A stretch of DNA of 63,350 nucleotides, filler included, from Reclinomonas americana ATCC 50394 (lineage: Eukaryota), in the NCBI GenBank assembly GCA_048213135.1. It is 41 parts of 41 records of this genome, joined end to end, with 100 filler letters (N's around TTAATTAATTAA, not from the genome) between each part and the next. Parts side by side here need not be neighbours in the genome. Positions count along the whole stretch, not along the records: positions 35,740 to 37,186 come from AFZH01025609.1; positions 37,287 to 38,733 come from AFZH01025610.1; 39 more parts are not named here. One strand, given 5' to 3'. How positions within the stretch are numbered: position 1 is the first letter of the stretch; each line of letters begins with the position of its first letter. Under the pieces are notes generated by a model. The model searched no databases. It worked only from the letters and a program-made list of their open reading frames with translations, and was not told the DNA's origin. Positions 35,740-59,176 of this stretch are shown piece after piece. The position numbers and the translations under genes were made by a program.

Positions 35740-37101
35740 GGCATTGTTCAATGTGACATTAGCGGATGTAATATACAAATTGACATCTGTTTTAGTCATA
35801 TCTAAACCGCATGAATAATCACCACCCTCTTCATCTGGATAATTAACAAATGAATGTCCGAAAATCAAACATTTTGACATATAATCAGGGTTATTGAAAG
35901 ATGCATCAGTTGATGTAACTGAATATGTTGGTCCAACAGCATTATTAACAAGACCATGATTTGAAACTTCATAGATCTCTTCAAGGTATTTAAGAGTTGT
36001 TCCAGCATTCAATCTTGATGTTACTTGAGGTAATAATGGGTAAAGCATACCATTTGATGCTTGGAATTGCCATGTAATTGTTTTTGTTTTGTCGACACTT
36101 GGATTACCATTAAATACTACTGATGCTAATGAGGTAGATGATGTAGCTGTTAATTGAAGACCACATGTTATTGATCTAACTTTTGTATAGTTACCGCCTA
36201 ATGTAAGATTAATCACATTATCACCAGCGGATAAACTACCTTTTGACATAACAACGATTTGTCTTGATGGAATAATAATAGATTTTCTTGGATTCTCATC
36301 AGCCATTCTCAATTGATCTAATACAATTTGGTTATATTGTGTTGAATGTAATGATTGAAGATAAACATATGTAATATTCATCTCATATGTAGCTTGACCA
36401 GCTGAGCTATTTTGTAATGCAAGGAGAGCTGATTTAAGTGTAAAATCAAAGTAAAGTTTGCTTCTAACATTAGCTAATGGAATGAAATCATTGTGGAAAA
36501 ATGAGCAAACACGTCCAAGATCGAGAATATAGTATACATATGAACCAGCAGGAACAGCTGAAAATACACGAGCTTGTCCAGCGCCATCATTTGGAGCATT
36601 CAATAAACCTAAATTATGATCGCTTGAGTTTGTTTGAATTGCACTATTAGCAGGATTGACAGCACCTTGAGCCAATGCACCCCATGCGTAACCATCGGAT
36701 TGTCTGTTAAGATCTATTTCTTTTTGATCTCTCATAATATGGCATTTTAATGCCATTGCTTTAGCTAAATCATTGCAACTCCAAATCTCTTCAGAATCAG
36801 TACCAAATCGACATGAACCAAAAATATCAGACACAGCACGAAGATAAGAATCTGTATCTGTACCCTGAGTTACTTTTACACCAACAACGAAATATGATTT
36901 ATTAGGTTTAAAATTAGAATCGGGCATATAAATACGACCTGTATCAGATGGAACATAGAGAGCTTTGTTACCTGAAATAAAATTATGTGTCTCTGGAATA
37001 CAGTGATCAGAGCTAATCTTTGGAATTTTTCTATCCACTTGCAAGTGAACTGGTAACTCGCTTGGTAAAATATTTGAGTTTGGATGAGTTGTATTCTGCA
37101 T
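35740..37101 (-). CDS. Probable major capsid protein (double jelly-roll) of a Polinton-like virus / virophage-type element, variant A, 3'-truncated (454 aa visible)
   Basis: Intronless AT-rich contig; SFFHNDFIPLANVRSKLYFDFTL, KVRSITCG, WQFQASNGMLYPLLP, LIFGHSF...SCGLDMT...VNLYI resemble PLV MCP motifs; beta-strand-rich pattern. Confidence 0.75.
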
Positions 37102-37107
37102 ATATAA

Positions 37108-37185
37108 CTATATTAAAGATAATTTTTTACGTAATCGTCTTTTAGATTTTGTATTTACAGTATTCAAAGTAGTATTATTATATTC
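37108..37185 (-). CDS. 3' end of upstream element ORF (EYNNTTLNTVNTKSKRRLRKKLSLI-stop); identical copy at 38655-38732
   Basis: Open frame from the contig edge to TAG, 6 nt before the capsid ATG. Confidence 0.45.
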   Translation of the reverse strand, partial: EYNNTTLNTVNTKSKRRLRKKLSLI

Positions 37186-37286
37186 TNNNNNNNNNNNNNN
37201 NNNNNNNNNNNNNNNNNNNNNNNNNNNNNNTTAATTAATTAANNNNNNNNNNNNNNNNNNNNNNNNNNNNNNNNNNNNNNNNNNNN

Positions 37287-38648
37287 AGCGTTGTTCAATG
37301 GAACATTAGCGGATGTAATATACAAATTAACATCAGTTTTAGTCATATCTAAACCGCATGAATAATCACCACCCTCTTCATCTGGATAATTAACAAATGA
37401 ATGACCAAAAAGTAAACATTTTGACATATAATCAGGATTATTGAAAGTAGGTTGTAAAGGGTCTATGTAATATGCTGGTCCTACAGCATTATTGACAAGA
37501 CCATGATTTGAAACTTCATAAATCTCTTCAAGATATTTAAGTGTTGTTCCAGCATTCAATCTTGATGTTACTTGAGGTAATAATGGGTAAAGCATACCAT
37601 TTGATGCTTGGAATTGCCATGTAATTGCTTGTGTTTTAGTAACATCAGGATTACCATTATATACTACTGAGGCTAATGCGGTAGATGATGTAGCCGTTAA
37701 TTGAAGACCACATGTAATTGATCTAACTTTTGTATAGTTACCGCCTAATGTAAGATTAATCACATTATCACCAGCGGATAAACTACCTTTTGACATAACA
37801 ACAATTTGTCTTGATGGAATAATAATAGATTTTCTTGGATTCTCATCAGCCATTCTCAATTGATCTAATACAATTTGGTTATATTGTGTTGAATGTAATG
37901 ATTGAAGATAAACATATGTAATATTCATCTCATATGTAGCTTGACCAGCTGAGCTATTTTGTAATGCGAGGAGAGCTGATTTAAGTGTAAAATCAAAGTA
38001 AAGTTTGCTTCTAACATTGGCTAATGGAATGAAATCATTGTGGAAAAATGAACATACACGTCCAAGATCGAGAATATAGTAAACATATGATCCAGCAGGA
38101 ACAGCACTAAAAACACGAGCTTGTCCAGAAGCTTGATTTGGGGCATTCAATAAACCTAAATTATGATCGCTTGAGTTTGTTTGAATTGCACTATTAGCTG
38201 GATTGACAGCACCTTGAGCCAATGCACCCCATGCATAACCATCGGATTGTCTGTTAAGATCGATTTCTTTTTGATCTCTCATAATATGACATTTCAATGC
38301 CATTGCTTTAGCTAAATCATTGCAACTCCAAATCTCTTCTGAATCGGTACCAAATCTACATGAACCAAAAATATCAGACACAGAACGAAGATAAGAATCG
38401 GCATCTGTACCCTGAGTTACTTTTACACCAACAACGAAATATGATTTATTAGGTTTAAAATTAGAATCGGGCATATAAATACGACCTGTATCAGATGGAA
38501 CATAGAGAGCTTTGTTACCTGAAATAAAATTATGTGTCTCTGGAATACAGTGATCAGAGCTAATCTTTGGAATTTTTCTATCCACTTGCAAGTGAACTGG
38601 TAACTCGCTTGGTAAAATATTTGAGTTTGGATGAGTTGTATTCTGCAT
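37287..38648 (-). CDS. Probable major capsid protein, variant B, 3'-truncated
   Basis: Colinear with 35740-37101; 22 aa differences in 454 by manual count, no indels. Confidence 0.75.
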
Positions 38649-38833
38649 ATATAACTATATTAAAGATAATTTTTTACGTAATCGTCTTTTAGATTTTGTA
38701 TTTACAGTATTCAAAGTAGTATTATTATATTCCNNNNNNNNNNNNNNNNNNNNNNNNNNNNNNNNNNNNNNNNNNNNTTAATTAATTAANNNNNNNNNNN
38801 NNNNNNNNNNNNNNNNNNNNNNNNNNNNNNNNN

Positions 38834-40279: not shown

Positions 40280-40404
40280 NNNNNNNNNNNNNNNNNNNNN
40301 NNNNNNNNNNNNNNNNNNNNNNNTTAATTAATTAANNNNNNNNNNNNNNNNNNNNNNNNNNNNNNNNNNNNNNNNNNNNTCTCTCTCGTCTCTCTCTCCT
40401 CCTC

Positions 40405-40477
<73 letters not shown>

Positions 40478-45133: not shown

Positions 45134-46454
45134 AGCGCATATGAGCAGCGTAGCTACCGCAAGGTAGCGGAGTTTCTTGCATGTGGTGTGCGCGGGCGCG
45201 TGAAGAAAAAAGTGGCGGAGCGCCTGTGGACTGACGAGGCGAATGGGTTGCGGATGACTGCCTTTGCACTGTCTGTGGATGGCGCCGGATGATGCCACCG
45301 TCGTCACGCTCCTTCGCATGGTGCCGATCGGCTTTTTCAAGAAGGTGGTTGCGCGCTGTCCCTGGTGGCCTGTCGCTGCGGTCGTCACTGGTCGACTACC
45401 GGCGGTGCTCGATGCAGTCCGCGCACGAGCTCAACTCGAGGATGTTCCGCTGCTGGAGTCAGTGATGGACTATACGGCTCTCGACTTTGCACTGCGAGCG
45501 GCTGTCAGCGTTGGCGATGGCGTCGCCATTCGTTACCTCAGCGGTCTCGCTCTGCCAGCTGCCAAACGCCGGCGCATGCAGTTGACGTTGTTCAACTGCG
45601 TGCGCCACTGCATCGGGCGGGGGAAGGAGGCCGTCCTCAATGACCTTCGTGAGTCGTGGCCACTGCACAACTTGGAGGCGAGTGCGCACCTCGAGTTGGC
45701 GGCCGCCACCAACGACGTGGAGACGGTGCGGCGGCTGCTGGACGAAGGCGTCGCCGACCCCACCGTTGACGACAACTTACCGTTTCGACAGGCCGCGTTC
45801 CGTGGCCATACCGAGGTGGTGGCTGCGTTGCTCGCTGACGATCGTGTCCACCCGGAACGACCGCATAACGTGCCTTTGCTGTATGCGTGCGGTAGGGGGC
45901 ACGTGGGAGCTGTGTCGCTGCTGCTGAGGCGCGATGAGGTGATTGTGGGCGGCGGGACCGACGATATGTTTACTCTCGAAAGCTGGCAATATCCAGGCAC
46001 ACCGGCAGATCCGGATGTGCAAGTCGTGGACACTGCCGTCGATCCTGATCCCTTCATAGCATTCTTCTTGAGTGAGGATATTCTTCCCGGTTCACCGCTG
46101 GAGGTTGCTGTGCGGTCGACTGATTGTGCCATGGTTCGAATGCTGCTGCAAGATGACGTGTTGCGCCATCCACGCGAGGCTAGTTTTCTGGGGGAGTCAC
46201 TGCCCGACATCAACGAAGAAGACGTGCTGCGGGCCTTCCTGGACAATCCGCGCTACTGGGAGAATTATTATGACGACCATGCTTTTGTCGTATGCATTTT
46301 GCATGACTGTGGACTTTTACCGTCGATCAAGGTGCCGTGTCTGTTGGAGTATCCGCGCTTTCGACCGCATGTGGACTCGCATGCCATGGGCGATTGCATC
46401 GTCGACTGCGTCGATGTTGGAGGACTTGCGGATCGGTCGCTTGAATCTGTGGTG
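45134..46454 (+). CDS. Ankyrin-repeat protein (eukaryotic), partial; one apparent frameshift at 45263-45265
   Basis: ADPTVDDNLPFRQAAFRGHTEVVAALLADDRVHP...PLLYACGRGHVGAVSLLL; removing one T of TTT joins the frames into MTALHCLW. Confidence 0.85.
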
Positions 46455-57518: not shown

Positions 57519-58571
57519 TCACCAATGCAGGTTGGGGTCCGTGCGACAGCGGAACACCACCACTTCGGCCTCCTCCACCAAGAAGCACCGCAGTACCATC
57601 TCCGGCAGACACCGCGAATCCACTTCCTTTTGCGCTTCCTGCACGGCCTGCAGAGCTCGTCGCGCGCTCTCGAGTTCGTGGCAGGCAGCGGCAAACGGTG
57701 ACGACCACACGCGCACGGTCTTGTCCTTGCATCCACTCACCACGTGCTGCCCGTCGGGAGAGACGGCCACAGACATCACACCCGAGTACGTTTCCAATCG
57801 TCGCACCTCCTCGCCACTTGCCAGCGACCAAACTCGCACCAACCCATCATCGCCTCCACTCACCACGTGCCGACCGTCGGGCGTGATCGCCACGCAGAAC
57901 ACGTACTTGCCCGCGTGACCCTCCAACCGGTACACCTCGTCTCCGCTCGTCAGCGACCACACTCGCATCGCCTTATCCCCCGCACTCGCGAGGTGCTGAC
58001 CGTCGGGAGAGACAGCGACCGACGATACGCGATGGCCGGGGACATCAAACCGCTGCACGAGTTCACCACTTGCCACGGACCACACGCGAATCGATTCGTC
58101 AAACAAGCCACCTCCACTGACAATGTGCCGCCCGTCGGCGGTGACGGCAACACACAACACCGCGGCGATGTGTCCGTCCAACAGTCGCACCTCCTCACCA
58201 CTCGCCAGCGACCACACTCGCACAGTCATGTCTGCACTCCCGCTCACAATGAACCGATTGTCGGGTGTGACCGCCACTGCATGCACCTGTCGCGTGTACC
58301 CATCCAGCTGTCGCACTTGCTCGCCGCTCTCCATCGACCACACGCGCACGCTTTCATCCTCGCCTCCACTCACCACGTGCAGACCGTCGGGCGTGACAGC
58401 CACTGAGCGCACCCACCACGAGTGCCCGGCGAACAGACGCACTTGCTCGCCACTTGCCAGTGACCACACACGCACAGTCTTATCAGAGCTTCCACTCACA
58501 AAGTGCTGACCGTCGGGTGTGACAGCGAGGCACAGAACACCACCAGTGTGACCTGTCAGACACCGGTGCAT
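57519..58571 (-). CDS. WD40-repeat protein (7 repeats), intronless
   Basis: Seven GH...V..VAVTPDG...VSG..D..VRVWS units. Confidence 0.93.
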   Translation of the reverse strand: MHRCLTGHTGGVLCLAVTPDGQHFVSGSSDKTVRVWSLASGEQVRLFAGHSWWVRSVAVTPDGLHVVSGGEDESVRVWSMESGEQVRQLDGYTRQVHAVAVTPDNRFIVSGSADMTVRVWSLASGEEVRLLDGHIAAVLCVAVTADGRHIVSGGGLFDESIRVWSVASGELVQRFDVPGHRVSSVAVSPDGQHLASAGDKAMRVWSLTSGDEVYRLEGHAGKYVFCVAITPDGRHVVSGGDDGLVRVWSLASGEEVRRLETYSGVMSVAVSPDGQHVVSGCKDKTVRVWSSPFAAACHELESARRALQAVQEAQKEVDSRCLPEMVLRCFLVEEAEVVVFRCRTDPNLHW

Positions 58572-59176
58572 GACGCAAGGGTGAGAGTCGCGCACAGCAC
58601 GACAAATTTTCCGCTCACTTGCTCCTTTTGTGTGTGATCACGCGCGCGCGCATCTCTCAATGGGTAATCTGTGCTCGAAAGTCGCCGATGTTGCGCAACA
58701 CGCAGGCACGCGTGACATTAACGGCAGTGGTGGTGACGAGAAGTACGCACACGCACGCACNNNNNNNNNNNNNNNNNNNNNNNNNNNNNNNNNNNNNNNN
58801 NNNNTTAATTAATTAANNNNNNNNNNNNNNNNNNNNNNNNNNNNNNNNNNNNNNNNNNNNTCTTTCTCTCTCTCCCCTTCCGTCGACTCAAATGTGCCTC
58901 TTTCGCAGACATCGCCGTGTGGTGATTGCTGCTTGCAGTGCTGGTGCAGTCTGTGCGCTGTGTGCCAAGTACACCGCGAGATCCGACACTTTTCGTTGCA
59001 CAAGAACCCACCGCTGGAGCTGGGTGTGCCACACGCCCAGGGTGCCATGTCCAGCGTACCACCGGCAGTGGAGCTGCAGCAAGTGCGACGCTAGTCGCAC
59101 GATGGCACTCTTTCCTCACAACACTCCTTCTCTGTGACACTGTGTTGATTGTAAATTCTTTTTTTCATTTCTCCAC

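Follow-up and report, generated by a model that had tools for sequence, protein, structure and literature searches.

A Probable Double-Jelly-Roll Capsid Gene in Two Variants on AT-Rich Contigs of the Reclinomonas americana ATCC 50394 Assembly

Two AT-rich contigs in the genome assembly of the protist Reclinomonas americana ATCC 50394 (GCA_048213135.1) carry variants of one gene that very probably encodes a double-jelly-roll (DJR) major capsid protein, a reading supported at the level of predicted fold and not proven. The contigs lie in the window, by which we mean the whole stretch of 63,350 nucleotides analysed here (positions 1-63350), at 35740-37186 (contig A, AFZH01025609.1) and 37287-38733 (contig B, AFZH01025610.1). 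We suggest, with a probability of about 0.68, that they are micro-variant genome fragments of a small DJR double-stranded DNA virus (Bamfordvirae), most likely of the polinton-like virus (PLV) or virophage type, tied to the GC-rich protist. The virus would be either an element integrated in several copies or a population present in the culture.

The two contigs and their gene

The coordinates of interest correspond to exactly these two contigs, each 1447 bp long and both read here on the minus strand. Contig B has the same end points as contig A and is 94.7% identical to it, 77 of the 1447 positions being different (a figure of 97% for the same pair is a column-majority measure and not pairwise identity). 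Their GC contents are 0.333 and 0.334, against 0.501-0.683 for the remaining 39 contigs, and the preliminary description of this DNA was right that the pair is far more AT-rich than the rest (33% versus 50-68% GC). The window as a whole is made up of 41 contigs of 1427-1461 bp each, in order of decreasing length, with spacers of N44 + TTAATTAATTAA + N44 between them; since the contigs are unrelated, the adjacency of neighbours carries no linkage information.

On the minus strand of both contigs, an ATG (37101 in A, 38648 in B) is followed by 454 stop-free codons that run to the contig end, giving the putative major capsid protein genes P0001 (variant A, 35740-37101) and P0002 (variant B, 37287-38648). 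The coding frame of contig A holds a single stop, the TAG of an upstream open reading frame (ORF), compared to 27-55 stops in each of the other five frames, and the chance of a 456-codon open run at this base composition is about 8e-16. The 454-codon frame is a real, constrained gene. The uninterrupted frame reported in the preliminary description is thus present on both contigs; it is open at the 3' end and not complete. The same description had called the element probably intact, which does not hold for the capsid gene: the contig end cuts it about 26 codons short, as the full-length relative P0003 (described below) runs about 26 residues further. A C-terminal strand, L(Y/W)V(I/F)YE(Y/V)E, is conserved in the relatives and is missing from the window copies through this truncation.

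The end of the upstream ORF, consisting of 25 codons and the TAG with a basic tail (...KSKRRLRKKLSLI*), is located at 37108-37185 on the minus strand of contig A, in the same frame as the capsid gene; the copy in contig B (38655-38732, minus strand) is identical. The tight packing described earlier is confirmed, as the upstream ORF ends 6 nt before the capsid ATG. The spacer, TTATAT, has no purine-rich ribosome-binding motif. About 87 nt of DNA is available upstream of the capsid gene in each contig, and the other contig end lies inside the gene. We suggest that the upstream ORF may be part of the same tightly packed gene block.

The upstream and capsid ORFs are in-frame with each other, with the TAG plus two codons between them (37099-37185 and 38646-38732). 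Read-through of the TAG, which would fuse the two, was rejected: a Met occupies the same aligned column in all four lineages, directly ahead of HPN(S/D)N, which suggests two genes, and all 19 glutamines are necessarily encoded by CAA or CAG because the frame has no stop. The HPN(S/D)N motif itself is almost invariant in P0001-P0005, lies within the first 12 residues and precedes a predicted disordered arm (model residues 1-38). A TCTA located 42-45 nt upstream of the ATG (37143-37146, minus strand) in an A-rich setting resembles a late-promoter element of virophages and giant viruses; it was not accepted as evidence, because by a rough estimate about 0.5 such matches are expected in 87 nt of this composition.

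A predicted double-jelly-roll fold

The fold was predicted with AlphaFold on P0003, the full-length relative with 61% identity. With three sequences, the model was poor (pLDDT 35.4); with a five-sequence alignment, it was middling (pLDDT 54.4, pTM 0.47). The better model shows two beta-rich domains, residues 35-266 and 275-473, with a helix between them; stretches 116-214, 335-344 and 385-408 are of low confidence. Transferred to P0001, the first predicted jelly roll corresponds approximately to codons 34-265 (36307-37002, minus strand; P0003 residues 35-266) and the second approximately to codons 274-454 (35740-36282, minus strand; about residues 275-473 of P0003), the latter being cut before its last predicted strand. 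The defining feature of DJR capsids, two consecutive eight-stranded jelly rolls in one chain, is thus seen at modest confidence on the P0003 models.

Structure searches place viral DJR proteins at the top. A Foldseek search of BFVD with the better model gave 85 matches at E<=1e-3, among which giant-virus major capsid proteins are the top named matches (E 2e-11 to 1e-9). The match at rank 10 (E 1.6e-9) is the unnamed protein M4QM72 of Tetraselmis viridis virus S1, a polinton-like virus. Capsids of a Sputnik-like virophage, of mavirus and of tectivirus-like phages are listed as well, together with the STIV coat protein. In the PDB, Foldseek found 121 matches to this model at E<=1e-3, headed by PBCV-1 Vp54 (E 1.8e-10), and the best 30 of the 121 are all DJR capsid proteins or scaffold proteins of the poxvirus D13 type. 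With the three-sequence model, the matches listed comprise only PRD1, PBCV-1, PM2, STIV, SGIV and D13. VIA-align, applied to 48,161 chains with no Foldseek step, found nine at Z>=8, and the top seven are from DJR-capsid virus entries (PBCV-1 10.1, ASFV p72 9.8, Faustovirus 9.7, EhV-201 9.6, PBCV-1 9.5, Orf scaffold 9.4 and mavirus 8.6); middling Z values commonly occur with this method. Single-jelly-roll capsids and carbohydrate-binding modules match one domain each, at Z 5.5-7.5. A second-look superposition of the first domain on ASFV p72 gave Z 11.8 and an rmsd of 3.0 Å over 158 residues. The capsid reading put forward in the preliminary description is therefore supported by two independent AlphaFold runs on P0003, with DJR capsids at the top of the Foldseek results for both models and of the VIA-align results for the better one.

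By analogy to DJR capsids of solved structure, this chain would fold into two eight-stranded jelly rolls, and capsomers of three chains each, pseudo-hexagonal in shape, would tile an icosahedral shell. Trimer and capsid formation are what we infer from this analogy.

Variable loops on a constrained core

Between the two ORF copies, 59 codons differ, 37 synonymously and 22 non-synonymously (dN 0.031, dS 0.164, dN/dS 0.19); the two variants noted in the preliminary description are indeed distinct and under purifying selection. The dN/dS decreases to 0.06 once three hypervariable patches, all on the minus strand, are set aside. The first (codons 172-174, 36580-36588) reads DGA in one copy and QAS in the other and falls within a loop inserted in the first jelly roll, where the model has low confidence. 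The second (codons 335-341, 36079-36099) and the third (codons 392-401, 35899-35928) are in predicted loops of the second jelly roll; the relatives also show indels in the former, and nine of ten residues differ in the latter. Predicted coil, which makes up 50% of the residues, holds 19 of the 22 amino-acid differences and the strands hold three. All three patches map to low-confidence loop stretches of the model, and the large indels among the five relatives are all in predicted loops, several of them in these same stretches. In solved DJR capsids, the inter-strand loops build the outward-facing tower of the capsomer. A core under strong constraint with quickly changing loops is consistent with a capsid surface that is exposed, and the three patches may, by the same analogy, be the outward-facing and fastest changing loops of the capsomer.

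The differences between the copies are unevenly spread. The first 331 nt (36856-37186 in A, 38403-38733 in B), which comprise the upstream ORF tail, the spacer and the first 82 codons, show no difference beyond the first base (P about 8e-11 at the downstream rate). Contig positions 801-1000 contain one difference, and the rest of the contig differs by about 7%. Such a mosaic pattern points to recombination or to gene conversion among copies, or else to graph paths shared by the assembler.

A nearly orphan sequence family

An exhaustive phmmer search of 1.84 billion representatives of about 15 billion proteins (E<=1e-3) identified three relatives of 480-529 aa: P0003 (480 aa, 61-62% identity, seen on three contigs, the longest of 5,538 bp), P0004 (507 aa, 32% identity, seen on two contigs, the longest of 19,278 bp) and P0005 (529 aa, 34% identity, seen on one contig of 2,657 bp). 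Each is the sole member of its own 90% cluster. Word-indexed protein searches with P0001, with a five-sequence profile and with a profile of P0005 and P0004 returned one, two and two proteins, respectively, with no new members. With three relatives in a search of this size, the capsid lineage, possibly undescribed according to the preliminary description, is indeed barely described. The peptides quoted in that description, FFHNDFIPLANVRSKLYFDFTL, NGMLYPLLP and LIFGHSF...SCGLDMT, are present, at alignment positions that all five members of the family conserve; their status as known PLV motifs was presumed there.

Pfam names nothing in the sequence, since the two matches it gave, G8 (E 0.2) and MCLN_ECD (E 0.031), miss the cut-off, and the JGI metagenome contigs yielded no relative, pattern matches there being unconfirmed by tblastn. 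In a protein-language-model look-up, the clusters nearest to P0003 and P0004 consist for the most part of hypothetical proteins from viruses (score 0.97-0.98); a few of these clusters have a minority content of the Capsid_N, DJR-like or Capsid_NCLDV Pfam families; the recognition scores are low, and we treat this result as a lead. Ta0289 (E 0.85-0.99) and Cullin-4A (E about 0.09), which appeared in sequence searches of the PDB, were treated as chance. What we have is a new and nearly orphan sequence family inside a well-known kind of protein.

Placement among DJR viruses

A PLV or virophage affiliation is the most likely placement, at somewhat better than even odds. Because the structure scores fail to separate giant-virus, virophage and PRD1-type capsids, this placement is drawn from context: 33% GC amid a GC-rich eukaryotic assembly, short micro-variant contigs, compact genes and the occurrence of P0004 on a 19,278-bp contig. 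A GC content under that of the host together with micro-variant copies is a typical but not exclusive trait of PLVs, and both parts are seen here (0.333 and 0.334 versus 0.50-0.68; two variants). The eukaryotic host, the affiliation and an endogenous or multicopy state are all features that we infer.

In structure, the family resembles the capsid M4QM72 of the PLV Tetraselmis viridis virus S1, with the Foldseek score given above; M4QM72, at 616 aa, is longer than the 480-529 aa of this family. The virophage capsids are similar in fold, mavirus (6G45) with VIA-align Z 8.6 and an rmsd of 4.6 Å over 166 residues and Sputnik (3J26) with Z 6.5, and Foldseek gives E values of about 5e-7 to 9e-7 for mavirus and a Sputnik-like virophage; the listed virophage capsids differ in being longer (573-606 aa) and in showing no sequence similarity. 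Among the BFVD matches, the family length falls within the range of the listed eukaryotic-virus capsids (about 400-620 aa) and above that of the prokaryotic ones (345-399 aa).

The published genomes of protist elements agree with this context. Bellas et al. 2023 (PMC10120064) describe PLV and virophage insertions of 15-30 kb in protists, often with a drop in GC, treat lone capsid genes on short contigs as fragments of larger insertions and report that many micro-variant copies break short-read assemblies. In Halocafeteria, according to a preprint (bioRxiv 10.64898/2026.07.28.741278), endogenous PLVs have 34% GC and virophages 35%, against 47% for the host. A Cafeteria study (PMC8547959) gives virophage genomes of 15-30 kb with 27-51% GC. 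The low GC, short contigs and micro-variants seen here match what is reported for endogenous PLVs and virophages of protists (PMC10120064; bioRxiv 10.64898/2026.07.28.741278), and compact genes are reported for protist PLVs as well; the 19.3-kb contig of P0004 is a further point of likeness to PLVs.

Several observations weigh against a PLV or virophage-type virus, or against a capsid at all. In the better P0003 model, 190 of the 480 residues are under pLDDT 50. The whole-chain TM-scores of the Foldseek matches are 0.17-0.29 with rmsd values of 15-25 Å, so the mutual packing of the two domains departs from that of real capsomers, and it is local 3Di similarity, together with superposition of single domains, that underlies the match. 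The jelly roll is a widespread fold, and carbohydrate-binding modules, phage tail-tip proteins and PNGase F reach VIA-align Z 5.5-7.3; a few BFVD matches are not capsids (a BTB-domain protein, an F-box protein and a bracovirus protein). PRD1 reaches Z 9.7 versus 11.8 for the top match in the second look, but 7.2 versus 10.1 in the wide VIA-align search. At the level of sequence, none of the five members matches any capsid Pfam family, Capsid_NCLDV (PF04451) and Capsid_N (PF16903) being unmatched even at E<=10; sequence searches of the PDB gave chance-level matches only (E 0.08-1); and the family has no detectable relative in the 2.9 million viral contigs of IMG/VR, where pattern matches were unconfirmed by tblastn. 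In the PRD1-adenovirus lineage of DJR viruses, the capsid gene is accompanied by genes for a single-jelly-roll penton protein and an FtsK/HerA-type packaging ATPase. PLVs are elements of 14-40 kb that add replication and integration genes to these three, often with terminal inverted repeats, and virophages (Maveriviricetes) share four core genes, for capsid, penton, ATPase and cysteine protease. Since the contigs end, no penton, packaging ATPase, polymerase, integrase, terminal repeat or host junction is visible in 1447 bp. Finally, there are bacterial-looking contigs in the assembly, which leaves some room for a phage origin.

The best structural scores belong to giant viruses. Instead of stemming from a 15-40 kb polinton-like element, the gene could be a diverged paralogue of the capsid genes of a giant virus (Nucleocytoviricota) or a mid-sized relative, and that virus would infect the protist or be integrated in it. 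Many giant viruses have a low GC content and tightly packed genes, which would fit here; PBCV-1 Vp54, ASFV p72, Faustovirus and EhV-201 capsids reach Z 9.5-11.8, and giant-virus capsids also lead the Foldseek results; Vp54-type proteins (413-437 aa) are similar in length to this family; and the language-model neighbours are often labelled Nucleocytoviricota. However, we consider this explanation unlikely. The ranking of DJR families is unreliable because it comes from a model with pLDDT 54, in which PRD1 is about 2 Z units under the top, and none of the five members reaches the Pfam models of giant-virus capsids. AT-rich contigs are only two of the 41 in the window, and 1.4-kb micro-variant pieces suggest repeated small elements better than one large genome, an argument backed by PMC10120064.

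It is distinctly improbable, in our view, that the gene encodes the capsid of a membrane-containing DJR phage, tectivirus-like or undescribed, whose host is a bacterium in the protist culture. The capsids of PRD1 (P3), PM2 (P2) and STIV (B345) share the two-jelly-roll architecture, with PRD1 at Z 9.7 on the first domain and Foldseek E 1.4e-8, and those of PR772, Gluconobacter phage GC1 and Bacillus phage Wip1 are also among the significant structural matches; PRD1 P3, PM2 P2 and STIV B345 have short loops and a length of 269-395 aa; the proteins of the present family carry long loop insertions (model residues 116-214) and exceed the listed prokaryotic DJR capsids in length. Tight gene spacing is typical of phages, yet the ATG is not preceded by a Shine-Dalgarno-like purine run. 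At least one contig of the window looks bacterial (a DeoC/LacD aldolase and a match to a bacterial DUF), but its GC content is 66% and that of the capsid contigs 33%. None of the five members matches a PHROG model at E<=1 (P0001 alone likewise none at E<=10) or an NCBIfam model; a tblastn search of 50,697 phage records yielded a single match at chance level (E 0.1, 14% coverage); and the genomes of 185,579 prokaryote species, one for each, yielded no relative, pattern matches being unconfirmed by tblastn, so the element is not a common prophage.

The gene might also encode no virion protein. It would then be a gene for a jelly-roll protein of the cell or of an organelle (such as a lectin or a glycosidase-like protein, from an AT-rich organelle, a symbiont or a contaminant) or else a repurposed capsid gene, for example a D13-like scaffold. 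The weakness of the model (pLDDT 54.4) gives such a protein some room, an organelle genome would likewise look like AT-rich, gene-dense DNA within a GC-rich eukaryote assembly, and poxvirus D13-type scaffolds score like true capsids (Z 9.3-9.7). We nevertheless regard this as very improbable. The top matches in four structure searches with the two models are viral DJR capsid or scaffold proteins, and the non-viral jelly rolls, including the carbohydrate-binding modules and PNGase F, score 3-5 Z units lower and on one domain only. Three sharply divergent loop patches on a strongly constrained background are the pattern of an exposed capsid surface, and a gene of organellar or cellular origin should have many homologues, against the three found. 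On balance, we retain the reading that the contigs are fragments of a small DJR virus, most likely PLV or virophage-type.

Other contigs of the window

Eukaryotic domains are present on the GC-rich contigs. Sec23/24 (sandwich and helical), seven-blade WD40, ankyrin and F-box domains run unbroken across 370-485 codons, and the ORFs with eukaryotic domains are located at 18683-20128 (plus strand), 57522-58637 (minus), 45258-46454 (plus) and 15570-17024 (minus). The aldolase of the DeoC/LacD family (E 2.9e-25), with a weak match to the bacterial DUF2090, is at 14020-15027 (minus strand) on contig 14019-15469 (GC 0.66), which is possibly a bacterial contig inside the protist assembly. Several GC-rich contigs end in dinucleotide repeats of the GA/CT type, seen as ERER... 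runs in translation (about 34140-34200 and 40324-40450), and these are probably points where the assembler broke. Rfam gave no matches in the whole window.

Significance

Taken alone, without the rest of the element, the gene adds one more divergent capsid to those known and does not amount to a new kind of system; an unusual full gene set would raise its interest. A more speculative possibility, which we advance only tentatively, is that the window pair together with P0003, P0004 and P0005 forms an undescribed lineage, at family level or higher, of small DJR viruses of under-sampled protists, with a capsid too divergent for current PLV, virophage and giant-virus profiles and missing from the large collections of viral and metagenome sequences that were searched. 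If so, the full genome of the lineage, perhaps on the 19-kb contig of P0004, could hold a gene set unlike those of known PLV and virophage groups.

Small DJR viruses such as PLVs and virophages are now considered to occupy large portions of protist genomes and to work either in favour of giant viruses or against them. Profile searches miss many of their lineages because of the strong divergence of the capsids, and the one described here would escape current screens. We also flag Reclinomonas americana ATCC 50394 as a host or source worth long-read sequencing.

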